From Desulfobacterales bacterium (lineage in GTDB: Bacteria; Desulfobacterota; Desulfobacteria; Desulfobacterales; 4572-123): 64,000 bases of DNA. A model generated the notes under the pieces. That model made no database searches. It had not been told where the DNA came from and was given only the letters and a program-made list of their open reading frames with translations. Positions 1-56,054 of the stretch are shown in pieces. The translations under genes were made by a program, and so were the position numbers. The DNA is taken from the NCBI GenBank assembly GCA_029939715.1, contig JAOZSJ010000003.1, positions 1,880 through 65,879 of the forward strand, written 5' to 3'. Position 1 is the stretch's first letter, and every line of letters starts with the position of its first letter.

Positions 1-1080
1 AATATCATCAGCCCCGCTGCCGCCAAGGATAATGTCATCACCGGCATTGCCGTATATCACATCATCTCCGGTCGCAATTGCAAAAGCTCTGATAATGTCA
101 ACAGCACCGCTGCCGTCTATCGCAACCTGGCCGTTATCACCCACCAGGATGTCATTGCCGGAATCTCCGGTTATTTCATCACCTCCGGCCCCGCCGAAGA
201 TAATGTCATCATCCTCGTTACCGGCCAGGGTATCATTGCCGCCGGCCGGTGAATCAATATTCAGAGTCCTTACTGTCCGGTCGCCCCATTTATCGATAAC
301 GGCGATCCCAACGTCGCCGATTATCGTATCTTTGCCGCTGTTACCGGTTATGCAGTCATCCCCGCTGCCGCCGAAAATAATATCGTTGCCGGCATCTCCG
401 GTTATGCTATCGTTGCCGTCGTCAAGCCGGCCAAGGGCTTTAGCAACAAAGCCGTCATCCTCGCTGAAAAGAACAGTTCCGTCATCTCCAAAAAGGAGAT
501 CCATACCATCACCGCCCCGGATCAAATCGTCTCCGGCCTGCCCGTAAACTATGTCATCCCCGCTCCCGGCCCGGATCACATCATAAGTTCCGATTGCATC
601 GTCGGTGACGGAGACTTGAGTTGCATATCCACCTTCCAGGCGATCGGCATCCGGTTCAATGATTCCACCATCTCCCAAAATCACATCATCTCCCTCACCA
701 CCTGTCAGGGTATCGGCTCCGGTGTCGCCGATAATGACGTCATCCCCTTCATGTCCTGCGATCTCGTCCTCATCATCGCCGCCAAAAAGAAAATCGTTGC
801 CCATGCCGCCGGAAATAAAATCCCCTCTGCCGTTTTCAGAACCGGCGGATGCAGCGCTGACAAGGTTTTCAACAGATTTTTCAACAATCCTGTCACCGTC
901 AAAGATGGTTATGAAATCATCTCCGAATACAACCTCCCCGGCATCACCGAAAAGCATCATGTTCTCTGTCCAGTTTTCACTTTCAACGGTGCCGATCAGG
1001 TCATTCCCGTCTCCGCCGAAGACAACGGCAAGCCCGTTTTCATTTTCGCCGTCATCTTCAAGAATACAGGTGTCATCCCC
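1..1080 (-). repeat. RTX-type Ca-binding nonapeptide repeats running off the window edge
   Basis: Hand translation of 1-69 gives GDDVIYGNAGDDIILGGSGADDI. Hand translation of 661-831 gives GRGDFISGGMGNDFLFGGDDEDEIAGHEGDDVIIGDTGADTLTGGEGDDVILGDGGI. Confidence 0.85.
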
Positions 1081-4000
1081 CTGATTCAGCCACACAAAGG
1101 TTATATCCTCTGCCTGAAGGCCGTATATGTACACGATATCGTCGGCCTTGCCGGCAAGGATATGAATGCCGCCGTCAAAATTGCCGTCGGCATCCCAGGT
1201 AATCACCGCCGGCGCCAGGCCGGTAATACTGCCGTGTTCTATTTCAGCCAAGGTGTCTGCATCGTCATCACCGGCATCACTGATATTCAGCATATGCCGT
1301 CCCTCTCCGGCATGGATAGTCAAATCCCCGGTAATCAGATCAAGGCTGCCGTTTTCAAGACGGGTATCAGAGGAGATATTGAAGATCTCGTTTCCGTCGT
1401 TGCCGCTGATGGTTGTAACGGCAGTCGTTCCTGTTACATTAAAAATGTCATTTCCCGAACCCAGTTCAATATCCAGGGTCTCGATGCCGTAATATACAAT
1501 GCCGTGGGCCATGGCCGTGATCTTGACCGTTCCGATCATGTCCGCGGAAGTATCGATGAAATCGATAGATAGATCTTTACAGCTCCCCATGAATGTAATC
1601 CGGTATACAGGCCCAAGAGAGGTAATCACGATATTTTTTGTGTGGGGCAGATCATCATGCGCATTATTGGGATTCAAGATGGGATCAAGGGCCGCAAGAA
1701 TATCTTCTGCTCCCGCATCAACGGAAATTTTCTCCGTCCACAAATCCATTGTTCCGTCATTGACAACTCCCCGGACATGCAGTCTGTAGGTACCCCGGGC
1801 CGCTTCAACCGAAAGGATCTGGGCCGTACTCAGATAAGGCCGGTTCGTTCCGTCGTGAAGCGTGCCGGTTTTTACAATAACCGAAGCATTCAAAGCGGGT
1901 ACCAGAGCTGTCGTATGGATATCCTCGGCCCATTTGATCTGAGCAAAATCATTGCCTGCCAGTTCACCGCCGAAGAGAATCGTAAAATTTGTATAAACAT
2001 CGGTTTCCAGATTAACCTGAATACTGTCGGAACCGTACAGCGCCCTGAGTTGAAATGCGATCTCATCTGCCGTCATGCCGTAATCCAGCAGCAGGGTTGC
2101 AAATCCGTAATATCGCGTGATCCTGTCGGTATCCGAAAGGCCCGATTCCCTGCCGCAGCCTTCAGCCGACAGGAGATAACTGCCCGAGGCCGCCTGGACA
2201 TACACCGTCTGAACCTCGGCCACGGACGGCATATCCAGCCCCGTCAACGTGGTCTGCGTCAGTGTGCCGATATCATCGGTTGTGTCATTGCCGTCATCGA
2301 CAAACAGTTCATCTTCACCTTCGCCCCCGGCAATTGTAAGCAGTGCCGCGATACGGTCCACGTATTGATCCTGGCTGCCCACATTGATCGTATCACTGCC
2401 AATGCCTGTATCAACGAGGGTATAACCGGAAACCGATTGAATATAAAGGGTATCGTCTCCATCGGCGCCAAAGACAGTGGTCAGGCCCTCATGGGTGGAT
2501 TCAATGGTCAGATTATCACTGCCGGAGCCCAGTTCAAGGTTCATCTCCTCCATATTGGCATAACGGATTCCGCCGGGAACCGGCCTGTCTCCGATCATGG
2601 TATCAGGCCCCATGCCGAAACCGTAAAGGCTGCTTTCGGTCAGGGTGCCTTCATCATTGGCCGGGCTGTTTCCGTTGTAGATGTTCAACGTATCCACCTG
2701 GTCTGCTTCATCCACCCTTACATTGGGATTTACCGGAGTATAAAAATAGGTATTACTACAGGCCACATAGCCGGTATCGATCCTCAGGACGGCGGAAAAG
2801 CCATCTCCGTTTACATTGGTGATTACGATATTGCTGCTGTTCTGTCCGGATTCGGCCGTATATCCATTGGCGTAATCCAGCTTGCCCGCCAGCCTGGAGG
2901 CCATTGACTCAAGGTCATCATCTGTTTTAACCGTACAGCCGTACTCTTCACCGTCGAGCACCATTGTCCATATCTCGCCCCTTATGACATTACCGCTCAG
3001 ACTGAAAGAGAGCTGTTCATCATTGCCGTCTTCATCCGTACTTGAATCCAGTTCTGTTTCGCTGACAGGCTCCAGCGTTATCGAAAAATCATTTCCGTCT
3101 GTATTCCTGATAGCAATTTCGCTGTCGCGGGCATCCGCTGCAAAACCGTCAATATCGCTTAACTGATCTGCCAGGGCCAAAGCCACGGTTTCAAGGGTCT
3201 CGGTGATGCCGCCTGCCGTGTAAAATGCGGCCGGTCCGGTTTCATCATTTATAAATATCCGCCAGGTCTCACCTGCGGCAGCATCACCGGTGAGCGTCAC
3301 CGTTCTGGCTACAAACAGATCGTTTACATCGATATCAATACCGGCCGCTGTAAAGGCATCTTCCCAGGATGTAGTAAATATTACGGTATCACCGATCACC
3401 GAGGCCGCCTGCATGACAATCCCCCGGGCCGGGCCGGCTGTGAGGACAAATTCATAGGGATTGTCGTTCATGCGGGGATCAAAGCCATCCATGCGGCCCT
3501 GCTCCGGATCGATGTACCAGGCGCTGGTATCGGTCAATGTCGCCTGCTCCTCACCATCGGCATTAACAATGGTCCCGGCGGTCAGGATATAACCGTCAGG
3601 CACATACCAGTTGGTTTCTCCGGGCAGGGTGAAGGGATCATTTAAAAACTTTTCCTCGCTGACCTGTATGCCGCCGTCGATGGCAAGGGGCCCCCGGATG
3701 CTGTTGATCCGTTCATTCATTGCAGGGAAAACCCGGGCATCACTTCCATCTACAACGTCGTCATCAATTCCCGAAACAAGGATCGTCTGGGGAAGATTCC
3801 AGTTTTGTGTGGTAAACACTACCTGGGGGATGACGGTCAAAAAGCCCGTACCTGCTGAATCAACCCGGGCATGAACTGTAAACAGCACCGGTTCGTCAAG
3901 CTGGTAGGTACTGACGGTCAGTGTATCGGCAGCCGTATCAGGTGTTGCCGAGTACCGGTTCAGGGCACCGGCCAGGCCGATGGCCACATCTTCTATGGTA

Positions 4001-7000
4001 TCATTTTCCTTTACCGTATAATTATAAGAGACGCTGTCTAATATAATGATCCAGGTATCCCCCGCTTTAACAGGGCCGTTCAGGTCAATGGTTTGAGCAT
4101 CGGCATCAAAACTGCTGAAGGAGCCTGCCGGTACGATATTGTAAGACAGGTTCATGTCAATACCCGACAGACTGGTGAGCACAACTGTGCGATCCTGTGA
4201 ACCGGCGGTCAGATCATTTCCGGACACCGCGTTTATAAGGGCGGCGAAACTGCCTGCAACGCTTTGTGCAGTGTCGTCTGTATCAATGACATACAGATAC
4301 TCGATGCCGTCTATCGTCACTGTCCATTGTTCACCGGCAACCACATCCGCCAGCAGTTCCACTGAGACCGAAGCCACTGCGGAAGCATCGACCTCACCCG
4401 ATCCCGTGGGGGTAACTGCACATGCCAGGGAGAACACCTCTCCTGCTTCACTGGTTACGGTGATGGTGTCGGCATCTGTATCATAAACCGCTGTAAAGCC
4501 TTCGACTGCATCCAGAAGAGATGCCAGCCGATCCCCTGCGGTATCCAGTTCCAGCGAATCTCCATTTGCCCCGCCCACATAAACATATTCATTTCCGTCC
4601 AGGGTCAGAGTCCATGTTTCATCCGCGCGTACCGGGCCGCTTAGAAAAATTTCCTTGATCCATTTTGTATCGGTGCCGAGGACTTCTCCGCTGCCTGCGG
4701 AAGATACCGTGCAGTACATGTCGAAATAATTTCCATTGAAGCTGGAAATTGTAATGATGCGCCCCTCGTATCCTGCAATAAAGCCATCCTCGGCATCCAT
4801 CAGGCCTGCCAGAATTGCCGCGATCTCCTCAAGTGTCTCGCCGGCGGTTACCGTGTGGCTGTAATCTTTACCGTCCAATGTTGCTGTCCAGTTTTCACCG
4901 GCAAACACCGGACCTGTCAGGTCAAGAGTCCGGGTCATCACTGCAAGGCGATTTACGACCACGGCATCTTCAAGGTCCGAAACAATCATGCATTGAATGT
5001 CGGCAGAGCTCAATCCATCTATATAAAAAGTAATTTCAGAACCATCTGAGCTTGCGACGCCATCGGGCTGCCGTGTTATAATTTCCGCCAGGCGTGTAAT
5101 GACGGCATCGATATCATCACCTGCCTGCACTTCATAGGCATAGGCAACCTGGTCCAGCATAATCGTCCAGATATCTCCGGGAATAACGGGCCCGTCAAAT
5201 TCGATCTTTGCCTGCGGAGTTGCCACATCCACCTGGACAGCTTCATTTTCACCGAAATTTGCATCCGGATCAAAGGCCAGGTCGGAGTTATAGGTCCGGG
5301 TCACCCGGGGAACAACATCTACGGCCACATCGCTTTCAGGCTGGAGCGTCAATACTATGTCATAGCTGTCCGTGACCGGGTTATAACCGGGGAATTCATC
5401 TTCCATCAGATAGGTTATGATAAAACGGCTCTCATCGGCTGAAAGAGTCTCCCATTGCCCGGTGCCCGGATCAACGGTATATTTCCTGGTAAGTGGGTCA
5501 TAGCCCATAATTATTGCAGTATTGCCGGTCCCGGGGCCTTCAACCACCGTAATCTGTTTGCCGATGAGTTCTACTGCCTTGGGATTTGTGGCATGCCGCT
5601 GCAGAGAGAGATTCAGTTGATATGAAAGCCCTTGGGCCACACCCTGTTCATAATCCGCATAGGGGATTGAAGGCAACGGCCCGGGTTCCATATAATGCAC
5701 CTGACTTCCGAGGCGGATGATGTAAAAACCGGCCCGGTCAAGATCAAACTCCAAAAATGGATCGTTGATGGAAAGGCTGCCTGCGTCAGGTACTGAAGGA
5801 TATACACCATTGAGAGGCTCCACCGGTGAAAGCACACCGCTTGAACCCATCAGATCATCAAAGGTTCGGCCCTCAATATCTGTTCCAGCGTCTACTCTGA
5901 ACAGATCAACACAGGGCCTTACGGTATAGACAACAGGAACCGGGATCATGCCTATCCCCGTATTATAATCATATATGGAGTAGCCCGTGAGATAGTTGCC
6001 CCTGTCAATATCTATAACGCCATGGACGGTTCCGCCGCCCCTTGTCACTTCGATTGTAAACGGTTCTTTTACGCCTTCTTTATCTTCAATAATAATTTTT
6101 TTATTGGAAAGCCGGCCGCCTGTGTTCAATCGGGCACTGTAAGTTGCCGCCGTATCTGCGTTGACAGCATCAACCAGGGCCAGTTTTACACCATACAGAT
6201 TCTTTAAAGGATCGGCCAGATCGGAAGTATTGCAGCTGTATGCCCTGCCGTTTACATAAATGGTCCAGAGCTCATTGGACTGGTAATCACCAAGCAATTT
6301 AATCGCTGCGCTGAAATAGTGCTTCCTGGCGTCAATCACCGATTGATCAGAGTCTATATCAAGGGCATCATGCAGACTGTGGTTGACTGAACTGATAAAA
6401 ACAGGTTCACCGTCGTCGGTATTGACGGTGATGGTACTGCCACCGTCCACATTTGGATTAAAACCGGAAAGGATTTCATCCGCCAGCCCCAGGGCCACGT
6501 CATTCATCGAGGTGTCTCCGGCAGCTACCTCATAGGCATCAGGATCGGCATTTTCGATGGTGACGCTCCAGAGATCGTGCGCTTCAACGGCAGCCCCGTT
6601 GTCCAGAACGATATCGCTGTACCAGAACAATAGCGGTGTACCGGACATTTCACTGCCACCTTCAATATCGGCTGCTGAGATATCACCGCTCAGGTCAATG
6701 CCCGCCGTATCATGATAGATCACCATGAACACTTCATTGCCGGCATTGCTGAAAATATGTGTGTCATAACCGGTGATACTGCCGTCAAGACCGTCCGCAG
6801 CATCGGATATATCCGCATCTGACGCGGATACGGTGTAATCATAGGTATTGACGTCCACGGTAACGATCCAGTCCTGTCCCTCATAAACTTCGTCCGTGTC
6901 CGTGTCGCCCAGCCGCAATGTTCCGGCATAACCGGTTTCACTGACAGCTCCCGAAGAAGATGCGGCGGTAATGTTCGCTGCCGTCAGCACGAGTGGCCCG

Positions 7001-10000
7001 CTGCAGGTAATACCGATGGTGCCGCCGGCAGTATCGGCAACAGGCGAGTATCCGCCGTCGATATCCCCGGCAAGGCCGGTGACTGCACTTGCAAGGGTGG
7101 AGCCATCGGTTTCATTGGCGGTATAATCAAACGACGAACCATCCATGTTTACAGCAAAAGTTTCACCCTCGGTAACATCGCCCCCAAGCAAAATGCTAAA
7201 GGTACTGGCAATCCGGATCTCATCGGTTCCAGCCGGGCTTGCATCTTCAGTTCGACTGTCCGCACTTAAGGCACCAAACGTTCCGGATCGTGAAATCGTT
7301 ATCTGACTGCCGGAAACTGATGTTGCGTACTGTGAAGGCAGGCCGGTTGAAGCGGCTGCCAGTCTGGCCTCAAAACTTGCCGCCACATCCGCCAGACTTG
7401 CATCAGCGGCAAGTGGCGTATGGGAATACTCGATGCCGTCAAGTGTAATGGCCCAGAGGTCATCGTCATCAAAATCTCCGGTCAGGGTAAAGGTTCCGGT
7501 CCAGTCCGTATAATCGATCGTGCTTTCGATATCCGCCTGTTCCACCTCCAGGGCCACTGTGAAGGTATCTTCGGAGCTGTTTTCAATCCTGATCACCCCG
7601 GGCTCATCCACGGTTCCGGGACCCTCCGCCGTGTAGGCGGTATACCGGATCGTGCCGTCGTTTATTTCCTGTGCAATGCCTGCTGCGACATCGTCTGCAG
7701 TGGTATCTTCCGCCGGTACCAGCCAGGAAAATTCATCCGTGCCGCCCAGGGTCAGTTTCCATGTCTGACCTTCATACACATCACCTTCAAACTCCACCAG
7801 GACAGATCGACGGTCCAGGCTTATGGTATCGGCCACCGGCGCGGCTATGATTTCAAAATCAATTGTAAAATCATTCCCGCGACTGTTTGCAATACTGAGT
7901 GCATGATTCGAGCCGGCCGCCACTTGTGCAGAATAGGGCCAATGGATCTCGGCGGCCAGGCCCGTGGCCACATCAGCCAGGGTTGTATTACCGCCCGGCA
8001 CAATATACTCGAAGGTATGCGGAGCTCCGGCTGAAGTATCATCCAGGGTCACCTGCCATGTTTCACCCTTTTTGACATCACCGCTTAATTCCAGCTGCAT
8101 TTCCACCCATTGAATACTCTCTATCACGGCTTCCGTCTGAACCGGTGTACCGCTGATATCCGCCCTGCCCGCGGGAGATGGGCCCTGCAGGGAAAAACTG
8201 ATGGTAAATCCGGCTGTATCAGATAGTGTCAGGGTGTCGTCTCCGGACCGAAGCGGTAAATAGTCATGATATGGATGATAATTTTCAATTTCATTGATAA
8301 GACCGTCTACAATGCCTTCAGGTGTCGGCGAATAACCGTTTTCTCCGGCGGTAACCGCATAGGGCGTATCGTTCAGTGTCAGGGTCCAGATCTCACCCTG
8401 GATCACCGGCCCTGAAATCTTAATCCGCGATTCGGTGAATTGAATCAGCGGCGTTCCGGTACCTGCAGGTGTTGTTACATCCGTTCTTCTGACCACAACT
8501 CCGGCATCCTGCCCCAGGTGGCTTACCCTGTCCACCCGGACACCGTTTTCATTGACGATAATTAAACTTCCGCCATCTGAAAAAACCTGAACCGGTTCAT
8601 CGGCAGCCGGGTTGTCATCATACTGTGCTGTCAGTACCGATGCCAGGCCGCCGGCCACATCGGCCGGCACTAAGTCGGTTTCCTGCACCTGGTAAGAGTA
8701 ATCCACGGCATTGAGCCGTATAGTCCAGACATCTCCGCCGGAAATCGTATCACTGTCATCAAGCAGATTCACCCTTACCCGGGTGTAATAGGTCTCATCG
8801 TCCGTGATTGTCCCGTTGCTTAAAATATCAGCCGCCTCCGGGACAAGCATCTCCTGTGTTACTTCAAACAGATAATAATCCCATGTGCCGTCTCCATAGC
8901 CCTGGATCTTGGTATAAGGCGTGTCGGAATTGATGGAATCGCCGTTACCGATCCGGGTGTCATAAAAAGTATACCAGTAGTAGGTATCCTCTATATCCTG
9001 AATATTCGCATAGCCCTCATTTTCGGAAACCGGATCAGGAGCAAACAAGAATGCATCCACATCGTGGTTTTCCATGGACACCTGCAGTTCATAGTCGGTG
9101 CCGGAGGGCAGGCCAAACCCAAGCCAGTTGTCTATTTCAAGATAATAATCACCCGCCTCGTAAAATGTGTATTCCATGTAATCATCAAGCCAGGTCGTGC
9201 TGCCTTCTCCACCCGTTGACGGGTTGGACCAGCCCTGCCCCTGTTTGACCAGGCGTGGTGTCCGGCTCCCGTCTTCATTGTCGATCATTTCATACAGTTT
9301 GAAACGGCTTGCCCATAAAATAGAATCGGTGTACTCAAACCCGTGATCCATATCAAAAACAGCATCAATGCCGGGAGAACCGCTGTCCAGGGCATCCCGG
9401 ATCATTCGCTCTGTTATGGAAAAGGCGTAGAAGGCGGACTCATCGTTTCCCTCGCCCTTGATGGTCAGGTGCGGAATGGCCGTGGACATATTGATTTCAT
9501 TATCAAAATTCATACCCCACATGCCCATGTCAATATTCTGGGCCGTATAGGCAGAGGTGTTGTATCGGGTGCCGTATATGACGGAAGTGCCGAAATCCGC
9601 CTCAAACACAGTGTCGGAATCCACAGACCGCACCTGTCCTGTTCCAAGTACCACCAGGCTGGTGGGCTCGGCTACAGTGGTCGTTCCCCCGGGCTCGGTT
9701 ACAAGGACACCGCCCGTGGCATCATCGGCAATCATGACATCCACGAACGACAGATGGAGGGTCTGGTTATTTACACCGGCCGTATAGGAATACTCTGTGC
9801 CGTTCAGTTTTACCGCCCAGATATTCCCGATATTTACAGGACCCTGAAGCTGGATTGTAATCCGGGTGAAATGGTTCGAAGGTTCCGGGTCTGTCAGGAT
9901 AACGGCATAATCCTGCGGGGCCGCGGTGATGGTAAAGCTGCTTCCATCAGCGCGGCTGAGAATGATTGTATCTGGATGGGTTGAATCAACATATGCGACA

Positions 10001-13000
10001 TAGTTTGAATCTCTGTTAATTTTTTCGGCCAGACCCCCGGCAATATCTTCAAGGGTATCTATACCTGTCACAACATACTCAAAAACATCGGTTGAATCGA
10101 TTGTAATAGACCAGGCATCGCCGGCCAGAACCGGACCATCGAGTTCAACAGATGCGATAAAGGCGGTATCAAAATCGGTCAGGACCGCACCCTGCAGCCT
10201 TGACTCGTCAAATGTAAACGTCGGGCCCCGTATGGTTATCGATGTGTTAGGATCGGAACTGCTGATGTCGGCTGTAAAATTTTCATACACGTTGCCCTGG
10301 ATCTTTTCAGACAGGCCATGGGCCGCATCTGCCGGCCCCAGGTTGAAATATGCTGCATACTCAGCTTCGCTTATATCGTGCGTAATCCGTGAGTAGTGTA
10401 TTCCCTCCACCTCATATCCGGCAGCATCGGGGGCAGCCTTCACATAGATATCCCGGGGGGTGTTCCAGTCTGCCTGGTTGAATTCCAGGCTCAAGATATC
10501 GGAAAAACCGGTGGATGCGGATGTTGACACCTGGGACTGGCTGTCGGTTTCAACAGTAATTTCAACACTGTCTGCTACAGCCCGGGTCAGTACGACCCTG
10601 TACCTGTCACTGCCCGTATAAAGGCCGGTATCGGCAAACTGATCATCTTCGCCAATCACCGTACCGGTTGTATGCTGGATCACCAGGACATCCGCGGTAT
10701 CATTGTCTATTACCTGAGCCGTCACGCCTATAACCGCCAGGCCGTCATATTCGCCGCCGTCATCCGGAATTGCCCCCTGAATAACCGTATGCTGGATATT
10801 ATAGTACCGCCGGCCTTCGGCAATCAGGTCTTCGGGAGCCGACACGGTCACGGTCTGGGGAATAAACCAGTTGGTCCGGTCAAACAGAAATGTGATACCG
10901 TCGCTGCTGCCGTTGAGTGCTATACCGGCACTGCCCGCCTTTTCCTCGGACTCGGTGGGCCTTGCGGGCGTTGCCGTAACGCGTACGCTCTCTACTGGTG
11001 ACCGGGTCAGAACGATCTGGTACCGGGATTGAACAAGAGTTGCAAATCCGGCGGAAGTATCCTCAAAAACCCGAATCGGACCCTCAACCATATCAACGAT
11101 GATACCTGCCTCGTCATTATCCACTACATTGGCGGAAACATCAGGGATGAACAGACCGTCAAAAATGGGATCATCGCTGAAGATGGTATGATCGATCAAC
11201 CCGCTGTGTCCTTCAAGGTCATTGCTCACAACGGTGATTGGATCGCCGTCGGTTCCTCCTGCAATATTAAAGGTGTCGCTGCCAAGTCCGCCTACAAGCT
11301 GGGTCTCCACATGCTCACTGGTGCCGGCCACATAGAACCGGTCGTTACCTTCCAGGGCATCCACCACGACCTTTTCAATGCCGTTATAGGTAACAAACAG
11401 GCCGCATCCCCAGACACCTTGATCCGTCACAACAATATCATCTCCAAACTCGGTGCCCACGATTGTCAGCGTATCATACCCGTCGCCGCCGGCGACCCGC
11501 ACCGGCGCGTTAACAACATAGGAGATAAAATCCGCGCCCTGCCCCCCGTTGATATTCGTATACGGGGCTTTGGGATCATTGGGGTCGACCTTTACAAAAG
11601 CCCTTACCCTGAAGGTATCGTCATCTTCCTCTCCGTAGAGGTACAACTCAGCCTTGTTGGCATATACTGTAAAACCGTCGTTTCCGATTCCGCCGTATAA
11701 GATTGTCGGAAAACTGATACCGTTGCTGAGATAGCCACGGGTGGTATGGGTGGTTTCAAACCAGTCATCTTCGGTGAGCCCGGCAGATCCATCCCGCGGA
11801 GACTTGAAGACCTGGCCTATCTGAAAGATATCGTCCCCGGCATCACCGTAAATAATGGTGGCGGAACTGTTGTCATCCAGGACAAAGGTATCATCTCCAT
11901 CCCGGCCGAAAATTCTCAGGCTGCCGTTTATGTCCCCGTTATAATTGACCCTCTCAATGGATCCGTTTTCAACTGGATTGCGAAATTCATCAAGTTCGAT
12001 GCAGGCAACCATATTCGGACGCATGAGAAAATAATCAGCCCTGTTCGTGCCGAAAATATCCAGCAGGTCGACATTCAGGTCATTTTCAGGAGTCTGGTCA
12101 TATACATCGATCAATGCCGACCCCTCGCCGGCCAGGCCTACCTGGTAATAATCACCGCCCGCCTGACCATGAAGGGTCAACGTGCCGCCGATACCGTTTT
12201 CATAGGTCTGATTCCCGGAAATATTATAGTTGGCCCGCAGGATGTCATTGTTATCGCCGGCAAAAATTTCGGTGGCCCCTGCAATACTGCTTATGTTGAT
12301 CGTGTCATCACCGCTCCCGGTATGCAGGGTTGTGGACCAGGCATGGGTGCTTTCGACAAAAAGGTTGTCCTCACAGGAGCCGAGCCATACTTCCAGATCT
12401 TCGGCTCCAAAGTAGAAAACCGCCCCTTCCATGCCAAAACCCGTAAAGGATGTTTCCGTCAGAACTCCTGTCTGGCCCGCGGAATCATCAGCTCCGGAAT
12501 TATCAATCCGGATATCATCCGCTCCCGTGCCGGTATTGACGGAAAGCGTGTAGCGGATATCCGCCAGTGTGTTTCCAAAAGGAAGCCCCGGTGACACGTC
12601 AACTTCATTTCCGATAAGAACTGAGTCGTCTCCTGTATTTGTGTTGACGGAACTATCTGTATTCTCCGCGATACTGAGTATATTAAAGGTATCACTGCCG
12701 GTTCCAAGGGCAATGTTCAGATCCTCAAGATTCCGATATCCGATTCCCGATGCCATATCAAGACCGGCAAGGAAACTGCTGCTCAACGTTCCGGTATTAT
12801 CGTTTGTATCCCCTGAATCATCGATATCCACCCGGTCGGTACCCGATCCGCCGTCAATATCAAGCAGGGCGTCTATACCGTCCACCCAGGGGTACCGGTT
12901 CTCATTTTCGTCCACCAGGATGTCAGTCACATCCGTCGTATCATCACCACCGCCGGTATTAACGGCAGTGAATCCTGAAATCGTCCTCACGTAAACAGCG

Positions 13001-37000: not shown

Positions 37001-40000
37001 ATATTGGCGCTCAGTTCGGCACCTGCAATCTCCCCTGTTACACCGGCACTGCTTATGGAAAGATTGCCGGATGCAATGGCTGCGCTGATAAAATCGGTGG
37101 TCCCGTCACCAAATCCGACATATGCGTTGGAAAGAGCCAGTTCGATGACATCCCCGTTTTTTATAAAAGCGAAATCACCGCTGATGGTCTGACCGAGAAT
37201 ACTGATACTGACATCTTCTCCTGAAATTTTCAGATATGGCCCGACAGGAAGATTTAAATAGATCGAACTGTCACCTGCGGTAAACAGTTCATTCACGGCA
37301 GCAGTTGTCTGGTTGATCTGCAGAGAAAATATTCCGCTTACATCAATTCCAGGGATTGTAATTGTAACAATACCGCTGATCTCACCGGCAAGGCCTTCGG
37401 GTGTCAGCAGGAAGCTGCCCTGCCCGTTTGACAGCGAAACAAGATCGGTTGACCCGTCACTCAGAGCAAAGCTTATATTTTCAGCCGCCACCCGGACAAG
37501 CTGTTCACCGGTATCATTGATAACGCTTTCAAATGCAAAATCGCCGTGGATTGCCTGATCGAAAATCACCAGGTCAAAGTCAACGGCCTCAAGGCGTATG
37601 TAGGGGCCGCCCGAAAGATCGAGTACCACACTTCGGCTGCCGGCAGTCATCGTTTCCAGCACAGGGCTGTCCGTAGTATTGACGGCAAGCTGGATATCGG
37701 ATCCAAAATCAATCCCGCTCACGTTGCTCAACGATATGGAACCGCTCAAACGGCCGGCAATGCCCGATCCGGTTATGATAAAAATTCCATCGCACCGGGC
37801 CCGAACACCAAAGTCATCGCTTTCATCGGCTGTATTTTGATCATCACCGATAAAAATTTCAACATCCATGGCACCAACGCGAATGATTGAACCGCCGCCG
37901 TCCGCAGCGGCCATTTCAAAAATAAAACTGCCTGAAAGTGTCTGGCCCAGAATATCAAGCTCGATATCGGTCCCTGTAATTCTTAAAAAGGGCCCGGCGG
38001 CAAGGGTGACATCAACATCATTGCCGGTTGTAAAAGTGACCTCGGAGCCTGTGGTATTAATACCAATCCCCATGGCACCCTGGAACTCGACACCGGGAAT
38101 ATCAGCTGCGACAAAAGCACTGAGCACTCCGGTCAGGCCGTCGCTTGTATATATAAAGGTGCCCTGGCCATCGGTGACATCCAGAGAACTGCCTCCGGCC
38201 TGGCCCAGGGAGAGCGAGACACTGTCAGCACTTATTTCAATAACCCGGCTGTCATCTTCATTGCCCGGCGTACCATCGGGGTCAAGGGTCAGCACCCCGA
38301 AGCCGAAATTACCGGTGAGGGTCTGGCCCAGCACCGTCAGTTCCATGTTGGTTGCCTGAAAGCTTTTGACCAGATCACCGGTGCTGAAAAAGACAGCAAC
38401 ATCACTGTCGGTTCCCGGAATTTCAAGAAGCTCATCCACAGCCAGGCCCGAGTTGTTGATCCGAACCCTTGCCGTGCCTGAAATCGTGATGCCGTCAACG
38501 CCGATTATGGCCACTGTTCCCGTTGCATAAAGTGCAAACCGGCTTTCCGAATAGTTGATCATCCCCACGGCGGCATCGAAAAGAAGGACACCGGCAGCAG
38601 CCGGGTTTATCTCCCCGCCGTTCAGCCGGGCAGGTCCCTGGCCTATGAAAATCTCAAGGCCAAAGCCTGCAAACCACTGGTAATCGCTTGCCGATGTATA
38701 GCTGAAACTGCCTTCGACGGAAATAAAATCGGCAATTCTAAGGCTCATATCAGCGCCGAAGATCTGGAAAAAAGGCGTTATGCCGCCCGCACTGCCGGAG
38801 GCCGTTTCGTTTTCACCGAAACCGACATGAATTAAACTCCCGTCAATTTCAACGTTTACGTCCACCGCTGACAGGGTTGAATTAATTCGAAGGCCCAGAC
38901 TGCCGCCGACACCGAAGTCATCTCCGGCGGCAATTGAAATTTCTCCTGAAATAATGCCGGCAATACCGCCGGGTGTAACCACAAAAGCACCGTCGGCATT
39001 TTTAACGCCGTTACCGTCAAAGGTGAATGAACCGTCAAGGACCGCCAGTGTAGTGACTGTTTCCAGCGTCCCTGCCCCGTTGTCTGTTGTCTGCTGCTCA
39101 AAGCCGAAGGTACCGGTGAGTGCCAGGGCATCGGCCTCGCCGATATTTACCGCAACATTTTTACCCACTACCTTTATATAAGGACCGGCAGGCAGGTCCA
39201 GCAGGATATCGTCTGTACCTGGAAGCGAAAAGGATTCACTCACCGCAGCCGCACTGGTATTGATTTCAACATCAAAGGATGCATCTGTCGTAAGACCGGT
39301 GATGCTGATATAAAAATCTCCCCCGATCATGCCGGCGATTCCGGTTTCCATGATCACAAGGGCTCCATGGGCGTTGGTGATGCCCACTGAATCCGACGCA
39401 AGGGAGACGCTGACCCCTGTTGCAGCCACACGGACGATCTTTTGATTATCGCCGGCGGTCAGTCCTTCAATCACAAAAACACCCTTTAAGGTCTGGCCGG
39501 CGATGGTCAGGACTGCAAGATCATTTTCATCTGCGCTGATTTCACCGCCTGCAATCCTGAAGTATTGAGCGGCCGTATCGATTTCAGCATTAAATATCCC
39601 GGCAAATTCGATGCCGGGCAGATCGACCTCTATTTGCGCCTGGGTCAACGTTCCGGCAATACCGCTGCTGCTCATGGCAAGACTGCCCGATTCGATGGTG
39701 ACACTTACAAAATCTTTTGTGCCGTCGCCAAGACCTATGTGCGCGTCACTGATGTGAATCTCAACATCACTGCCGTTTTTAACAATGGAAAAATTCCCGC
39801 CGATGGTCTGGCCGAGCATTTCCAGCTTGACATTCTCCCCGCCGAACCGAGATGTGCCCGCGGCCAGATCCAGGGTCTTTGTGATATTGCCCACGGTGAT
39901 CCCACGCAGAACAGCATCGGAGAAAGTGTTCTTCTGCATCCCGAGATCACCGGATAAAGTCACGCCGTCGATACCCACAACAGACGCCAGCCCCCCGGCC

Positions 40001-43000
40001 TCAAATGCATATCCGCCTGGAGCGATAAGCACCATGAGCTCGGCACCGGAAACACGGACGCCGATTTCCTCACTGTCACTGCCCACAAAAAGATCCACCC
40101 CTGCAGCGGCAATCAGTATCTGTGTCGGGCCATCAGGTGATGTTGTCTTTTCAACGGCAAAACTGCCGGAAAGGTTCCCAAGGGGGGTTTCAAGGGTTAT
40201 ATCATCCGCCCCCAGCCGGCTCATGCCCGCGGCAACATCAAGGATGACCGGTGTAGTGCCGACGGTGATGGATCGATTCACATCCGTAGTCATGGTATTC
40301 TGACTGGCACTGAGAACGCCGCTGAAAACCAGTTCAGGGACACCTGCAATTTCGGCGCTGCCGCCGGCATTAAATGCGTAGGTGCCGTCGGGTTTGATCA
40401 AAAGGGCAAATTGAGCCCCACTGACCCTGACGCCGAGGTCGTCGCCTTTATCCACGGTCTCATTATCATCACCTGCAAAAAACTCGATGCCGGTGCCACC
40501 GGCAATAATTTCATTGGTTACGCTGTTCTTTTCAAAATAAAGTGATCCGGTCAGGTCTGCCACGGGGGTGGACAGGGTAATTAAATCGCCCGAAAAACAG
40601 AGGAGATCGGTATCATCAGGCCCGAAATCAAGAACATGGTCCGTTCCATTGATATTGATCACCTGATGGACTTCATTGCCTGTGGTATTGGCACGCATGG
40701 ACAGGGAGCCGCCAAGGGAGAGGATGCCTTCAAGCCCGGTAAGCGCCACATCCCCGGATGCATCCGCCGCAAATGTAGAGTTGTCGTAAATCACCATCAG
40801 TAAAGAGGCGTCGCTTAATGAAATTCCCACCGAACCGGGTACACCGAGAAAAGTGTCCACATTAATGGCGCCGATCTTGATAACAGGGTCTGAAGGGCCG
40901 GTGGCATCGGATTTTTCAAAGAAAAAATCCCCCTGGATGGATACAAAATCCTCTATTTCTAGGTCTGCAAAACCGGACATGCGAATAAAACTGCCGGCTG
41001 CGTCAAATGTCAACGGTATGCCCGAGACTGTTTCATTGACACTGATACCGGTGTTGAACTCCAGATCAAGGCCGGCACTCATGACCAGATCGTCAATGCC
41101 CGAAAGGTCCGCAACCCCGGCTGCCCTTCCGGCCATGCCGTCCCGGGTCAGGATAAAGGCGCCAAACCCGCCTGCAAGATCCAGGTGTACATTTTCACTC
41201 CCGATGGAAAAAGTCACATCAGAGGCAGTAAAAATCATCGCTGTGCCTGATTGTTTAAAGACAAAGCTGCCCGTGAAAGTCTGGTCAAAAATAGTCAGAT
41301 CGACCCCGGCAGCTTCCACGCGGATAAAAGGACCGGCGGAAACATCAACCACGAGCACCTCTGCCCCGGAATTTTGAATCGTTTCGTAGACAGCAATATG
41401 GGTGGTGTTTACTGCAAGCGTTATATCTGCCGCCATGTTGACCGCACCGGGAATATCGATGGTTGTATGAGCGGACACCTTTCCCGCAAGGCCCGTGGAA
41501 GTCAGTAAAAATACACCATTTATACCGGTGATTTCAGCAAGGGGGTCGGGGTCGTCTCCGTCGGTGAAAAGAATATTTCCGGAGGTAACAGCCACGGTGA
41601 CCGTCTGGGTGTCGTCATCGGTGCCGGCCTGCCGGTCCGGACCGTCTGCTCTCTTTTTCTGAAAAATAAAAGCGCCGTCGGTAATCTCCTGATCGGCAAT
41701 CCCGAGGGTCAATCCAGTGCCGGAAACCGTTATATCGCTCCCGGAAATATCCAGGCTGATATCAGCGGTGAGGATTATGCCGGTATCCGGATTTACATGG
41801 ACGTGAGCCGAGGCCGAACCGGTAAGGCCCGAATCACTGTTCAGGGTAAAACCGCCATGGACCTGAGTCACCGAGACCAGTTCGGTTGTACCGTCACCCA
41901 GCAAGAAGGCCACGTTATCAAAGGCCACATCTATCATTGCCTGGGTTCCTGAACTCACGTCAAAATCAAAATCACCTTCAAGGGTCTGGCCGGCCACATG
42001 AAGTTCCACCCCCGTGCCTGAAATACTGAAAAAGTTGGTTTCTTCATCTGAAAATTTTATCGATACCGTGTCGGTCCCCATCAGGAAAGTCTGATCCACA
42101 GCGCCATCGGTGGTATTCATGTCGAGGCGGAAGGCTCCCGAAAAATCAACATCAGGAACGTTGAAGGCAACCGAGGCGCCAAGGGTTCCGGCAAGCCCGG
42201 TACTGCTTATAACAAAAAATCCTTGACCGTCCGAGAGGGTTAAATACTCACTGTCTGCCGATCCAAAGCCGATCCTGACATTGGATGCGGCAGCGACTAC
42301 GGTCTCTCCTGCCTTTTCAACGGCAAAATCACCGGTCAGGGTCTGCCCGTAAACCGTAAGTTCCACATCCCTGCCGTCAATACGGAAATAGCTTCCCCCG
42401 GGCAGATCAAAATCAAAGTTAATGGTTTCACCGTTGACTTCAATGGCCCCTGTCTTTGCTACCGGAACAGGCATGGTGTTGACTGAAACGGCCAGGCCCG
42501 CTCCGAAAGCGACATCAGCAGAAGCGTTGATTTCAATTCCGGCCTGCATGGTTCCCGCCAGCCCCTGGCTGTTAATTACAAAACAGCCGAACTGGCCTTC
42601 TCCCTGGGCAATGCTGACCGCATCTCCAAGATTAAGTTCCACACCGGAAAAACAGACCGTGAGCAATTTTTCACCATCTTCTGCCGTCACCTGATCCAGA
42701 GAAAAAAAGCCGCTGAGGATCTGGCCGAGAACAATCAATTCAAGGTCGCCGGAAAAACTCATATCGCCGTCACTTACCGTGACGGGATCACCGCCTGTCG
42801 TAAAGGTATAATCAAAACCGATATTATTGAATCGAACCGATGCCGAGCCTGAAAGCTGCGCATCGGACACCCCGAGCAGTTCCACATCACCTTCGGCATA
42901 AAGGGCGTATGAAGAACCGCTTTGAAAAATTTCCACAGATCCGTTGTCCATCAAAAAACCGCTGGCCGCAGCACTGGTTTCCCACAGTTCGGGATCATCA

Positions 43001-46000
43001 CCTGTTTTGACCTTGGCAGGTCCTTTGCCCATGAAGATGCTCAGCCCGGTGCCGGAAAAAACTCCGTTGCCGCCAAAGGAGATCTCATCTCCCTCTATGG
43101 TGACAAAACCGCCTATATTAAGGACAAGATCCGCACCGAAAAACATGAAATAAGGGCCGGTATCGCCGGCAGTTTCGGCAGCACTGAAACTGATGACAAT
43201 TTCACGGCCGTCCAGAATAATGGTTTCATCAACGGATAAACCGGTGGTATTGATCTTGAGTCCGATGCTGCCACCCATATCAAACCCGCCATCAGCGCTG
43301 ACACTGACCTCACCTGAAACCGTACCGGCAATTCCGCCGATATCACTGCCGCTACCGGCAACTATGACAAAAGCACCCTCTCCGTTTATAATTCCGTTGC
43401 CGTCGTAGGTCAGCGAAATACCGGTCATGGCAATTCTGGTCACGCTTGAACCGTCGGGCCGCTCACTTTGATCAAAACTGAAACTGCCTGTAAGTTCAGT
43501 GCCGTTGATGCCGAGGATCGCGTCGGTAACCACGATCCTTACAAACGGACCTGCGCCAAGGGATAGATCTATGGTTTCACCGGCGACCTCAAGGGATTCA
43601 TAAACCGGGACATCCGTGGTGTTCAACTCAATCGACACCCCGGCATCGGCAAGTGATATTCCCGGGACATCAAAATAAGCCGTTGCTGCAAAACTGCCGG
43701 CCAGACCGATGCTGTTGAAAACAAAAACGCCCTGACCACCGGTAACTCCCACATAGTCATTTTCGGTACTGCCAAGAGTCAGGGCAACATCGGATAGGCC
43801 TATAAGGACAATGGCTGAATTGTCGGCGGCGGAAAACTGCTCGATGCTGAAATTTCCGGAAAGAGACTGCCCTGCCGCGGACAGGCTCACATTACTGCCG
43901 CTTACCCGGACATATTTATCCGTGGGCGAGGTGGTATCGATGGCAACGGAAAATACACCTGAAAAAACAACTCCGGGAACCTGGGCTGTAACCAAAGCCT
44001 GGTCAAGAAATCCTGTAATACCGGAACTTTTAATCTCAAGACCGGCGAAATCCGCTGCCACATGGACAAAATCGGAAGTACCGTCCCCAAGAGAGAGCGT
44101 CACCGAATCAGCGGAAAGCGCAACCGTCGATTCACCGCTGTTATCGTCAAATCCGTATTCAAATTCAAAAATTGCGGCATTGAGCCGGATACCGAGGATA
44201 TGAATATGACCGCCGGCAAGTGCCGTCCGCACAAAAAAACCGCCCGGTTCCGCGGCTTCCACCGTCTCACCTGCCAGGGTATGGGCGGTTTCGGTGGTGT
44301 TGAAAAGCAGGGAGACCGTGCCCTCAAGGGTAATGTCACCGCCGAAATCAGGCCCCTGTACAGCGGCATTTACAGCCGCTCCGGCAATACCGTCCGGCGT
44401 AAAGATAAATGCAAATTCCGCATCTTCAATACTGATTACACGGGTCAGTCCTGCCTGCAGTATAAAGTCCAGGTTTTCACCGGAGATGGAAACATCTGCA
44501 CCGCTCTTTTCAAGGGTAAACCGGTCGGCACTCAGCCTGTTTTCAAACACGGTCAGGCTTCCGGAAGCTATTTCCACCCGGACATAGCCGGTGGCAGCGG
44601 CATCTACTGTAATGGTCTGATCATCTATGACCAATGTCCGGGTCTGCCCGGTTGTGTTGACCAGGAGCGAAACGACACCGTCAAGTGAAATATTTTCCAG
44701 ATCCGGTCCTGATACGACGGCATTGATCACACCGCCGGCAATGCCGGTGTCGGTAAATATGAATCCAAAATCAGCATCGTTGATCTCGACAATCCGGGTT
44801 ATGCCGGCCTGCAGTAAAAAGTCCAGATTTTCACCGGAGATTGATACCTCGGCCCCGCTTTTTCGCAGCACAAGGCTATCGGCTGTCAGGCGGTTGCCAA
44901 GAATTTCAAGGGCTGCGGGCTCGTTATCCGACAGGGCCGTTATGCCTAAATAAAAATAGGGACTGTTCGTCCCGGCCGCGGCAACGGTCAACGATTTTCC
45001 GTTTAATTCGAAGGTCTGCACTGTTGTGGTCGTATTAAAGGAGAGCGACAGTTCTCCGGCAAGAGAAATACCCGAAAGTGCAGGACCATTAAAATCGGTT
45101 ATCACAACCCCGCCGGCGATACCGTCATGGGAAAAAATGAATCCGAAGTCGGCCTGCAGGACTTCAACAATCGTCGTTCCACCGGCGGCAAGGTTGAAAC
45201 TGAAGCCCTGACCGGTGACCGTCACTTCAGCGCCGCTTTTTTCAAGAACCAGACTCTGGGCCGTAATTGTGTTGTCCAGTATATCCAGTGTTGCCGGAGC
45301 ACCTGTTTCGGTATCTTCACTGATTTCCACCCTGAAATAAGGGCTGCCCGTCTCGGCCCCTTCAACGGTGATAGTTTCAGTAGTGATATTTTCAAATGAC
45401 TGGATTGTTGCCGTTGTATTGACAAACAGCGACACCGAACCTTCAAGGGTGATAAAATCAAGATCCGGACCGGTCACATCCGCATTAACCAGCACACCGG
45501 CAATACCATCGGAGGTAAAGCGGAATCCGAAAGCAGCATCATTTATCTCAATAATCCGGGTGGTGCCTGCCTGCAGGAGAAAATCAAGGCCCTGCCCCGA
45601 AACATCGATCACCGAACCGCTCTTTTCAAACACCAGGTGATCGGCTGTCAACGTGTTGCCCATAATGCCCAGCTCCGCATCAAAAATCACAGCCTTGACA
45701 TAGAAGCTGTCCGCACCGGCACCACTTACTGAAACAACCTGGCCGCCTGCCATGATCTCCCTGGTGGCCTGTGTTGTATTCACAAACAGATCGGCCCTGC
45801 CGCCAAGGGTAATTTCCCCGGCAAAATCAGGCCCAAACATCCGGGCATCGACAACGGCGCCGACTATCCCTTCCGAATTAAGCTCAAATGCAAAATCCGC
45901 ATTAGTTACAGAGAGTATCCGTCTGTTTTCAACCCCGAGCCGGAATGCAAAACTTAAATTGTTTCCTGAAATGCCGACAACGGCTGTATCGCTGCTGTTT

Positions 46001-49000
46001 TCTTCAATCACCAGCTCATCGATGGAAAAGTCAAAGCTGTCCATCACAGTCAGTGTTATACCGGTACCGACAATTCTGACAAACGGTCCGGCTTCAAGAC
46101 CCAGGGAAAGCAGGGTATCATCAATTGTTGTTTCCAGGTTTACAGCCAGGCCGGTGCTGTTTAAAGACAGCCTGAAAGTCCCTGCCAGGGCAGCTTCCGG
46201 ACCGGCTATGGAAACCCTGGCCCCGCACTCGCCGGCAATACCTTGGGAATCAAGGATAAAAAAACCGCTGGCCTGATCGACAACGACAAGATTTGATCCG
46301 AGGTTAACTTCAACATCATTGAAAACGGCGGTCACAACCGCGTGATTTTCAGATGTAGTCTTCTGCTCTATGAAAAAACTGCCGCTCAGGGTCTGATCGC
46401 CCACGGCAAGTGTTGCCGGGCCGGTTACTTCAATCCTGAAATAGGGGCCTGCGGGAACACTAAGATCAATGGTTTGCCCGTTGACCTCAAAGTTTTTTAC
46501 AACAGCCTCACCGGTGCTGTTGACAGCCAGGGCCACATCACCCTGGAAAGAAAGGGAACCGATTGCCAGCCCGGCGCCAAGATCCAGCTTACCGGCAATG
46601 CCGGATTCCGTTATCAAAAGTGCACCGCTGATATCACTCAATGCTGCAAGGTCACCTGATTCATCACCTATATTCATAAAGGCGGCACTCACCCCGATCT
46701 CTATGGCGCCGTCTCCTCCAGCGGATCTTTCAAAGGAGAACGTGCCTTCCAGCACCTGATCAAGAATGGTAAGAGCAATGCCCCCTTCAAAACTCAAGGC
46801 TCCTGCGATGACTGAAATCGTACGGTCATCGGCCAGAACAACCGACTCGTCACTGCCTGTGTTGTTCACCCGTATAACCGCAGTTCCTGAAAAGGATACG
46901 CCCGGAATTCCCAGCAGCACCACCTGACCTTCGGCATAAAAAACATACTCACCGGCAGCCGGAGTATAAAGTCCGAATGAGGCATCCTGGAGAAGAATAC
47001 CGCTGGCACCGGGATTTATGGAGCCGTCATCAAGGACGCCCGGGCCTTCTCCAAGAAATATACTGGCATCTGCTGCAGAAAGCCGGCCGTCACCTCCGAT
47101 GCTGAAACTGCCCTCGATGACGACAAAATCGGCGATATTGATTCTGCCGCTGCCGAAGAACTCAAAAAGATCGGTTTCCGAAGAATCAAAGAAAATGGTA
47201 TAGATAACGCCGTTAACGTTGATGGTTTCATCAACCGATCCGCCGGTTTTGTTGATTCTCAGCCCCAGAGCCGCATCGACGCCGGCCTGGCCCCCTTCGA
47301 CATGCAGATCGCCGGACATGACGCCTGCAATTCCCCTTGCGGTAATAACGATTGCCCCTGCGCCGTTTTCAAGGGTCTGGTCGCCGATGGTAACTTCCAC
47401 CTCAGTGAGTATGATCCGGGTAATGACGGCACCGTCTGTTTCCCGCTGATCAAAATAAAAATTCCCCTGCAGCAGGCTTTCGCTGTTTCCGGCAATAGTT
47501 GCCGCTGCATTCAAGACAGCCACTCTTACATAGGGTCCTGCAGGGAGTTCAACAAGGTCAGGCGTTTCACCCATGGAAACACTTTCCGACCGCGTATTGA
47601 TCTCAATTAAAACATCTGTTGTATCCAGCTCGAACTGGTCAATCTCAAGGGCAATTGTACCACCCAGCACACCGGAAATGCCGGCATCACTGATATTCAA
47701 AATACCGGTTGTGACCGCAGCTTCAACAAAATCGGTGTTCCCGTCACCAAGGGTAAGGTCGGCATTTGAAACCCCCAGTGTAATCTGATCACCGCTCTTT
47801 TCAAACAGGAAAATACCGCCAAGGCTCTGGCCGGCCGCGGTAATGGAGCCTGCCAATTCGACCTTAAGATACTCGCTGCCCGCTTCAGTCGTATCAAGTT
47901 CCAGCTTAAAGCTGCCGGCAAGTGCAATACCTTCGATCCGAGAGGTAAAATTTTCAAGCAGATCCAGATCAATGGCGGCGATGATCCCGTTTTCGGTTAT
48001 CTGCATGAAACCGCTGCCTGCAAGACTGGCCAGGCTTTTTTCACCGGCGGCAAGTTCAAGTTCATCGATTCGGGTGGTTACGGCAATATCAATGCCGTTT
48101 TTCTCAAAAATAAAAAGACCGGCTATGGACTGATCAAGGAGCGTCAGCGCCCCGTCTAATTCAACCCGCAAATAAGAATCACCGGTTTCATTGACAGCCA
48201 GGATTTCCGGAAGCGCCTCTCCGCCGATGGCGGTAATTGTTTCACCTGTGGTATTGAGCTTAAGTGTAAAACCGCCGTCCATTGCCAGATGATCAAACCC
48301 GGTTGTAGAACCCGCGGCGACGGACAGTTCGATAAACGCACCAATACCGCTGGTGTTTATCAGCATTGAACCTGCACCGGTCAATTCAATCAGGCTTTTG
48401 TCGCCTGCCTTCAGCTCAAGGCTGTCGATATCTGCACCAGCCCTGATAGAGGCGCCGTCTTTTTCGAAAACAAATTTTCCGGCAAACAGTTGATTAAACG
48501 CTGTCAGGGTCCCATCCATCTCAATGAGAAAATATGCATCCCCGGCGTCATTTACCGCAAGCTCTTCCACAAGAGGCGTTCCACCTATGTGGGTGACCGT
48601 TTCACCGGTGGTATTAATTTTAAGATGAAAAGTTCCGTCCAGTGAAACCAGATCGATGGTTGAATCCGCAGTCAATGTCAAATCAAAAACGGCGGCAATG
48701 CCCTTTTCACTGATCTGGATAAAACTGTCTGTGATGGAAAACAGAGCAAGACTTTTAGCCTCATCTCCGGCACCTGTTTTTAAATCCAGGATAGCGGATG
48801 TGATATGAACAAAAATATTCCCATTGTCCAAACCAAAAGAAAAATCCCCCGAGATGGTCTGCCCCAGAATTTCCCAGGAACCGGAAATATCGGCAGACAG
48901 TGATTTGCCGGCCAGAAATGAGGCCAGTGCATTTTTCATACCTGGGTCATCCGCGGTACTTACCTGCAGATCATCAGAGGCGTTCACCACTTCGAGTACC

Positions 49001-50781: not shown

Positions 50782-51019
50782 AAGCAAATGACAACTGAGC
50801 AACCTGCCATTTTAGAAAGTGACAAACGGGCAGGCCTGAGTTAGAGTAATATCCGGATAATATAAGCTATTTGGAAACCCGGCTGGCAACATAGTGTTTA
50901 ATAATGCACCATAACGAACGTCTCTGCTGCAACTTTAAATAAAATATTATCTGCTGAATATACATTATTTTATTATTAAATCAACAATAATCAGCAAAAT
51001 TGTTCCGGTAATGATTCAA

Positions 51020-53207: not shown

Positions 53208-53332
53208 AATTACCTCTTTAAAAATGCTAATATTGTAGTGTGACTAAATTTAAGGAATGTTTCCTGCCTGGTTTGAAATTCATAACCTGATGTTTTTTGA
53301 TAAAAAGCACTTACATATCCTTCTTTATTCTT

Positions 53333-54469: not shown

Positions 54470-54504
54470 ATTTTTCTCCTTTTCCTTTAAAGATAAGCTT
54501 TTGG

Positions 54505-54580: not shown

Positions 54581-54584
54581 TTAA

Positions 54585-56018: not shown

Positions 56019-56054
56019 AAATATTCCCCAATAATAGATACAATTTTTTCTTGA

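Follow-up and report, generated by a model that had tools for sequence, protein, structure and literature searches.

The window, by which we mean the whole 64-kb stretch of DNA analysed here, is largely occupied by one open reading frame on its minus strand. This frame contains no stop codon over 16,937 codons (positions 1-50811) and is still open at the left edge. An in-frame TAA (50812-50814, minus strand), located by an open-frame scan and in the sequence itself, closes the frame upstream, and ten codons after it lies the ATG at 50781, from which the giant ORF (1-50781, minus strand) runs for 16,927 codons to the window edge, with its 3' end beyond it. Translation of the frame begins NGRLLSCHLLM. 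The first-pass annotation had claimed this start, the upstream TAA, the codon count and the open edge, and our frame scan agrees with it exactly, as TAA, TAG and TGA are absent over all 16,937 codons. It had also noted that every minus-strand ORF of at least 60 aa listed inside 1-50781 ends at 2 mod 3, and that the ORF track seems to leave out ORFs open at the edge. A recount gave the identical result (all 34 ORFs have a high coordinate of 2 mod 3 and share a single other frame), and the ORF tool, by its own statement, omits ORFs that run off sequence ends.

Given the base composition, the probability of meeting no stop in 16,937 codons is ~1e-345, and the second-longest open stretch in any frame of the 64-kb window is 618 codons. 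In each 1,000-codon block the giant frame contains no stops, compared with 28-102 in the other two frames of the same strand, and its codon-position composition is uniform (GC1 0.56-0.60, GC2 0.39-0.46, G at position 1 0.40-0.47). The earlier claim that the translation is meaningful along the whole span is thus borne out by a coding-type composition in every block. Antisense ORFs opposite the giant gene (plus strand, for example at 253-2907) reach 421-444 codons; we read them as shadow by-products of the codon bias of the giant gene, not as genes.

The start codon is preceded by an AT-rich spacer of 240 nt, and no obvious Shine-Dalgarno sequence was found upstream of it. A sigma-70-like promoter match (TTGATT-16-TATATT, 50957-50984, minus strand) is a weak candidate, being a consensus match only, of which two were found against 1.7 expected by chance. 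The N-terminus of the protein is conserved in a handful of other proteins (MGRGNSKNLFELENLEPRILLSAD...), and these homologous N-termini support ATG 50781 as the true start.

Proteins encoded next to the giant gene are identical to entries of 'Desulfobacteraceae bacterium 4572_123' (OQY08210.1 and neighbours), a metagenome-assembled genome (MAG) from Guaymas Basin sediment (PMC5569505; discussed too in PMC8318568). The upstream neighbours of the giant gene, encoded on the same strand, are a flavin oxidoreductase in fragments, two methyltransferases of the MttB family, a saccharopine-dehydrogenase-like gene, a DAO oxidoreductase, an ABC importer and a BTAD/TPR regulator. The NADH:flavin oxidoreductase (PF00724; 51020-51780, minus strand) survives as two pieces that do not share a frame (~171 and 72 aa), far less than the 342 positions of the domain. 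The split is called alike in five assemblies, so that it is a conserved remnant rather than an assembly error. A recoded stop was rejected for this gene, as two pieces in different frames indicate a frameshifted remnant. The genes at 51777-61606 (minus strand), namely two MttB genes without internal stop (the non-pyrrolysine type), the saccharopine-dehydrogenase-like gene, the DAO oxidoreductase and the ABC importer, resemble a cluster for the catabolism of quaternary amines or methylamines. Use of Pyl and Sec has been discussed for relatives of the 4572_123 MAG (PMC8318568). In the last part of the regulator gene, a 9-bp indel near position ~62069 (CTTCGACTA), present in loci L001 and L002 and absent from the window, is the only length difference among the assemblies compared. 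No type I secretion system (T1SS) genes (ABC, MFP, OMP) occur in the 13 kb upstream of the giant gene, which hold methylamine-type catabolic and ABC-import genes.

Domain order and the 122-residue repeat

The encoded protein has at least 17,004 residues, the length reached in another assembly (see below), and a mass of roughly 1.7-1.8 MDa. It is rich in G, D, A, L, S, T, V and I and poor in lysine (1.6%) and cysteine (0.2%; 35 in 16,927 residues), and its net charge is about -1,700 overall and between -29 and -85 in each 500-aa block. Along the 16,927 residues there is no transmembrane-like hydrophobic window, and inspection of the N-terminus by eye showed no hydrophobic core typical of a signal peptide. 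Pfam, NCBIfam and PDB sequence searches found no enzymatic domain; a motif scan found no HExxH, and its GxSxG matches were scattered and uninformative. Curated families cover ~5% of the length, leaving ~95% without one. The order of parts from the N-terminus is a LEPR-XLL motif, an acidic linker, 59 repeats of 122 aa split by an FG-GAP propeller, a mixed C-terminal half and an RTX beta-roll.

The LEPR-XLL motif (aa 12-32, FELENLEPRILLSAD; 50686-50748, minus strand) scores 28.8 bits with the NCBIfam profile LEPR-8K (NF012209; curated cutoff 17) at E 6.2e-7, covering positions 1-21 of the 24 in the profile, and is conserved in the N-termini of the relatives P0287, P0288 and P0290. The region that follows (aa 33-638; 48868-50685, minus strand) comprises the acidic linker and a domain common to a few relatives and has no Pfam family. 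In family profile searches of the first 660 aa only LEPR-8K matches, and no retention-module family does. A LapG-type dialanine site after the motif was considered and dropped, the residues here being TIAPD, with AA(A)P in some relatives.

Between aa 639 and 8259 the protein is built of 59 repeats of ~122 aa, interrupted once. Array A has 49 tandem all-beta repeats (aa 639-6640; 30862-48867, minus strand), delimited by self-BLASTP, HMM iteration and AlphaFold2 (AF2) modelling, and array B has ten more (aa 7030-8259; 26005-29694, minus strand), delimited by self-comparison and HMM. The interruption is an FG-GAP beta-propeller (aa ~6641-7029; 29695-30861, minus strand) that matches PF13517 in six stretches (110.6 bits, cutoff 26.9) and PF01839 in five (66.8 bits, cutoff 22.1), with a Trp about every 55 aa. 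Self-BLASTP on the chunked sequence shows the repeats to be 35-47% identical as protein, with a period of 123-124 aa. An AF2 model of three consecutive repeats, with the other repeats as the alignment, is entirely beta (pLDDT 92.5, pTM 0.81), each repeat contributing eight strands of 7-16 residues to a continuous meander. Neither Big nor Cadherin Pfam domains occur in the giant protein, and its extender repeats are not Ig-like. Foldseek searches with the model found only the walls of outer-membrane barrels in the PDB (TM ≤0.28) and no significant match among viral models. As predicted, the repeat thus combines a familiar local meander with an overall fold that has no solved counterpart in the libraries searched. 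If the 59 units formed a continuous sheet (eight strands per unit, spaced 4.8 A apart), the rod would measure ~0.2 micrometre, or about half of this if it were two-layered.

The repeat is widespread. Searching its profile against 1.84 billion cluster representatives yielded 1,990 proteins with E ≤1e-3, of which 569 reach E ≤1e-30, with up to 49 copies in one relative, a protein of 7,479 aa. None of the repeats matches Pfam. Word-indexed protein searches gave seven matches for the repeat and six for the N-terminus (all of ≤1,467 aa, near-identical copies being missed by this method), and the relatives found with the repeat in this way are also without a Pfam domain. The 122-aa repeat family is undescribed and uncurated and is the freshest element of the finding; its occurrence in ~2,000 cluster representatives across phyla, together with a confident and unmatched predicted fold, makes it a good target for domain curation and structural work. 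Named carriers, all of them partial sequences, are a Lacunisphaera 'LEPR-XLL domain-containing protein' (HVZ63437.1, 7,712 aa), one protein from Rariglobus (6,519 aa) and one from an Olavius algarvensis-associated bacterium (CAB5080406.1, 6,015 aa), the last with 31 copies. Among the 147 best-scoring relatives with sequences examined, LEPRxLL-like N-termini were found in nine (7-24 residues after the Met), FG-GAP-type calcium loops in 19 and RTX-like C-terminal parts in six; these counts are lower bounds, because most of the 147 sequences are fragments. The relatives with a LEPR-XLL motif span 1,255-7,712 aa and are mostly partial. An FG-GAP region flanked by 122-aa repeats is also present in a relative on a long-read contig.

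The C-terminal half is more heterogeneous. A ~115-aa domain (family r150) was recognised by self-comparison in six copies, two at aa 8392-8635 (24877-25608, minus strand) and four at aa 9451-9965 (20887-22431, minus strand). It is followed by degenerate calcium-binding, beta-roll-like modules (aa 10816-13176; 11254-18336, minus strand), a zone defined by a Pfam RTX match at aa 11186-11219 and by self-comparison, which revealed a duplicated 218-aa unit (aa 11435-11652 and 12960-13175). Next come 17-18 copies, in three blocks, of a ~92-aa Trp-containing alpha/beta domain (aa 13544-16019; 2725-10152, minus strand), identified by self-comparison, AF2 and Foldseek. Foldseek matches its AF2 model (pLDDT 86.7, topology b-b-a-b-b-b) best to domains from the tail and sheath proteins of phages (8i4m_A, E 1.8e-5, TM 0.66; 8kee) and more weakly to flagellar cap and flagellin domains. 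Given the general background on such phage and flagellar proteins, we take the 92-aa domains to be surface-exposed decoration domains.

A terminal RTX beta-roll block (aa ~16650-16927; 1-834, minus strand) is cut by the window edge. It matches PF00353 in six stretches within the last ~280 available residues (88.9-93 bits), the NCBIfam family RTX_toxin and, among PDB sequences, the CyaA RTX region (E 6.4e-10). Two relatives indicate what may lie beyond it. A protein of at least 4,697 aa from a Desulfuromonadales MAG (L006), 35% identical to the C-terminal part, continues for ~267 residues past the point aligned with the window edge; its own end comprises an acidic stretch plus a short hydrophobic segment. 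From aa ~15,001 on, the giant protein is colinear with a relative on a nanopore contig (L019), in which an RTX block of ~1,080 aa is followed by a beta-rich end domain of ~170 aa, possibly lectin-like. By analogy with these, some 0.3-1 kaa would be missing from the giant protein, whose total length may be near 17,200-18,000 aa. As relatives end differently after the RTX block, a T1SS signal at the very C-terminus is not assured, and the flanks fetched for the relatives contain no T1SS genes.

It should be noted that on four long-read contigs (L018, L019, L021 and L022) the relatives appear as strings of adjacent ORFs of 300-2,900 aa on one strand. These are probably single giant genes broken by indel errors, in which case such genes are undercounted. 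On a further contig (L020; JGI 3300027098 Ga0209367_1000459), a homologue of the LEPR-XLL N-terminus lies between two cadherin/Big_9-type genes (3,651 and 3,565 aa) and adjoins an ATPase_2 gene, which looks like a local cluster of giant surface-protein genes.

Export and function

RTX adhesins are secreted through a T1SS and held at the cell surface (10.1101/2025.09.30.679566). They consist of a retention module, Ig-like extenders, a ligand-binding region and, at the C-terminus, a beta-roll that bears the T1SS signal, and range from 1,500 to 15,000 aa (10.1101/2025.09.30.679566). The retention module has ~130-200 aa, and the cognate T1SS genes are often adjacent. We favour, with a probability of about 0.7, the reading that the giant ORF is an intact gene of an uncultured Desulfobacteraceae population, the 4572_123 lineage, encoding a secreted, calcium-folded, adhesin-like surface fibre. 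The protein would be exported unfolded and would fold outside the cell on binding calcium at its RTX and FG-GAP loops. Its 122-aa repeats may form a long, stiff beta-sheet rod serving as an extender, while the propeller and the C-terminal domain arrays could contact partner cells, minerals or matrix polymers. Secretion would, by analogy with RTX adhesins, be of type I, C-terminus first, and the N-terminal part would keep the fibre attached to the cell. On the strength of this analogy a T1SS is the most likely export route, and the acidic, Cys-poor and signal-less character of the protein suits a type I substrate (established knowledge; 10.1101/2025.09.30.679566).

The main rival for the mechanism also places the protein outside the cell, but supposes that a dedicated pathway recognising the LEPR-XLL tag exports and anchors it, with the RTX parts acting as calcium-dependent folding modules only. 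In its favour, the motif keeps a fixed spacing (7-24 residues) to the initiator Met across unrelated lineages, as a sorting tag behaves, and such a pathway fits the lack of T1SS genes near the giant gene or its relatives, the non-RTX C-terminal ends of relatives and the RTX block at aa 11186, where RTX is used away from the C-terminus. We nevertheless consider it unlikely. No such pathway has been described, the motif being mentioned only in passing in the literature found, and the giant protein has no hydrophobic signal-peptide core; moreover, T1SS genes are often unlinked from their substrates, and an RTX block close to the C-terminal end is the classic T1SS arrangement. In a bolder proposal, which we regard as unlikely, the 59 units would build an undescribed kind of continuous beta-meander rod of ~0.1-0.2 micrometre and define a large, uncurated domain family, LEPR-XLL would mark a new export or anchoring route, and the whole would serve sediment Desulfobacteraceae as a long-range contact device, for example towards syntrophic partners or minerals.

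Integrity of the gene and of its assembly

Copies of the locus were found by an exact-protein look-up of the neighbouring MttB gene. The same locus is present on five other public contigs, which are 99.7-99.96% identical to the window over the shared parts, and the shared first 9 kb of the giant gene contains neither an indel nor a stop in the other assemblies. The gene is called from the same ATG at 16,864 aa on ENA DOMB18-1 scaffold_31, where it is cut by the contig end (at window position ~190), and at 17,004 aa on contig JAPOGU010000244.1 of GCA_029935855.1, where it is cut 231 nt to the left of window position 1; both contig ends (~190 and -231) were placed by arithmetic on the gene-call lengths. 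The minimum length is therefore 17,004 codons, with the frame still open at that point. The leftward extension that the first-pass annotation had called for was thus achieved in part, in that another assembly adds 231 nt of open frame, but the stop codon was not reached. Two exact-pattern scans of metagenome contigs with 31-32-mers from the left end gave no match, a scan of a genome collection with the C-terminal 800 aa returned relatives of 28-40% identity only, not of the same species, and no cluster of the collection matched N-terminal fragments from L004 and L005. All of the long assemblies break within ~420 nt of one another, inside the terminal RTX block near the left edge of the window. 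The cause lies outside the window and may be a further repeat, a C-terminus with a paralogue at another place in the genome, or variation between strains. On an older contig (JGI Ga0073581_100267, in JGI and NCBI; locus L002) the giant gene is called as only 3,449 aa, ending at the equivalent of window position ~40,430, and the contig continues; this call may come from a gap in the scaffold, from an indel introduced by sequencing or from a truncated variant that is real.

When the window was compared with three other assemblies, pN/pS was 0.46-0.72 over the giant gene's first 9 kb, on the basis of small counts (16-24 differences), and 0.11 in the metabolic genes that flank it. The higher ratio fits a surface-exposed protein under relaxed or diversifying selection. 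A ratio so far above that of the neighbouring genes could also mark a decaying relic, or a gene intact only in some strains, with no functional full-length protein, and this reading gains something from the ATG without a clear Shine-Dalgarno sequence, from the 3,449-aa call on one contig and from the adjacent flavin oxidoreductase, a conserved fragment whose persistence indicates that the neighbourhood tolerates decay. We hold it to be very unlikely, because the frame has no stop in 16,937 codons, the population variants compared carry no nonsense mutation or frameshift, pN/pS is still below 1, the coding-type composition is uniform and the architecture is conserved across phyla.

The first-pass annotation had also worried that repeat arrays might be misassembled. 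This worry proved unfounded, as the repeats of the protein are only 35-47% identical, and at the DNA level Tandem Repeats Finder reported no tandem array in 1-50811, no 21-mer is repeated in the whole 64-kb window, and the best self-BLASTN match is 58 bp at 88%. Without DNA-level repeats there is no repeat-driven ambiguity in the assembly of the gene. That the giant frame is an artefact, either a chimera or collapsed or expanded repeats joining shorter genes, is the least probable reading and already close to refuted: the shared break near the left edge, the 3,449-aa call and the frequency of short-read misassembly in giant repetitive genes (10.1101/2025.09.30.679566) speak for it, but besides the lack of repeats it is opposed by two other assemblies that are open over 50.6 and 51.0 kb from the same start, by the near-identity and absence of indels noted above, by a domain order colinear with relatives and by the consideration that a chimera would not hold one frame open for 16,937 codons. 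We conclude that the giant ORF is genuine, coding throughout and reproduced in independent assemblies. It demonstrates that a gene of >50 kb can be assembled reliably from short reads where its repeats are old and diverged.

Comparison with known systems

Proteins of >10,000 aa and the combination of LEPR-XLL with RTX are already known, and the gene itself is present as an unnamed call in public assemblies. The giant protein belongs to the annotated but uncharacterised LEPR-XLL group (NF012209), for no member of which was an experimental study found in the literature searched. Like these proteins it begins with a short basic stretch, has the LEPRxLL motif a few residues further on, is extremely long and carries RTX at its C-terminal end, as does a Vibrio protein of ~8,000 aa with an N-terminal LEPR-XLL and a C-terminal RTX (PMC10868602), and it has the same 122-aa repeats as the Lacunisphaera protein HVZ63437.1. 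It differs from the Lacunisphaera and Vibrio proteins in being about twice as long, in coming from Desulfobacterota and in the other domain arrays of its C-terminal half.

The RTX adhesins (LapA, MpIBP, FrhA and SiiE-like proteins) resemble it in their long extender array with an inserted module of ligand-binding type (here the FG-GAP propeller), in their acidic, calcium-binding character, few Cys, lack of a signal peptide and C-terminal beta-roll. Its extenders, however, are 122-aa beta-meanders rather than Ig-like sandwiches and are 35-47% rather than nearly identical to one another; its length is above the 1,500-15,000 aa range, and neither a retention module nor, in the 13 kb upstream, T1SS genes were detected. 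With non-Ig-like extenders and with no retention module, secretion signal or transporter genes seen in the sequence available, it is not a canonical RTX adhesin by the minimum definition of that group (10.1101/2025.09.30.679566).

With regard to size, the first-pass annotation had ranked the protein with the few giant bacterial proteins known. A survey describes predicted proteins that reach 10,000 aa or more as frequent in several phyla, gives 85,804 aa as the longest and plots a class of 15-20 thousand residues (bioRxiv 10.1101/2023.11.21.568195), so that the idea of a few is dated, while the size itself stands. That study sets thresholds of 10,000 aa for 'large' and 30,000 aa for 'giant' proteins; with its minimum of 17,004 aa the present one counts as 'large' and not 'giant', unless there is much more sequence beyond the break. 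It adds a Desulfobacterota example to the class of 15-20 thousand residues. The very large proteins of Omnitrophota and other phyla (bioRxiv 10.1101/2023.11.21.568195) and of Chlorobium chlorochromatii (bioRxiv 10.64898/2026.03.19.712371) are likewise single ORFs of tens of kb, for the most part with no domain that is recognised. They have calcium-binding repeats, are predicted to form long beta-sheet superstructures and have been proposed to act in contact between cells, and their assemblies are also often cut inside the gene. No sequence relationship to them was found, however, and the giant protein is without transmembrane segments or peptidase domains, stays below the 30,000-aa threshold and belongs to a free-living or syntrophic sediment Desulfobacteraceae. 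If its fibre does mediate contact between cells or between cells and minerals, it would bear on how sediment sulfate reducers form consortia.

Within the same broad lineage, Candidatus Magnetomorum sp. HK-1 encodes 30 proteins of at least 5,000 aa (PMC11573180). The Magnetomorum and Olavius-associated proteins (the latter CAB5080406.1) are shorter or partial; the broad lineage to which they and the giant protein belong has a known tendency towards very large proteins of the surface type.
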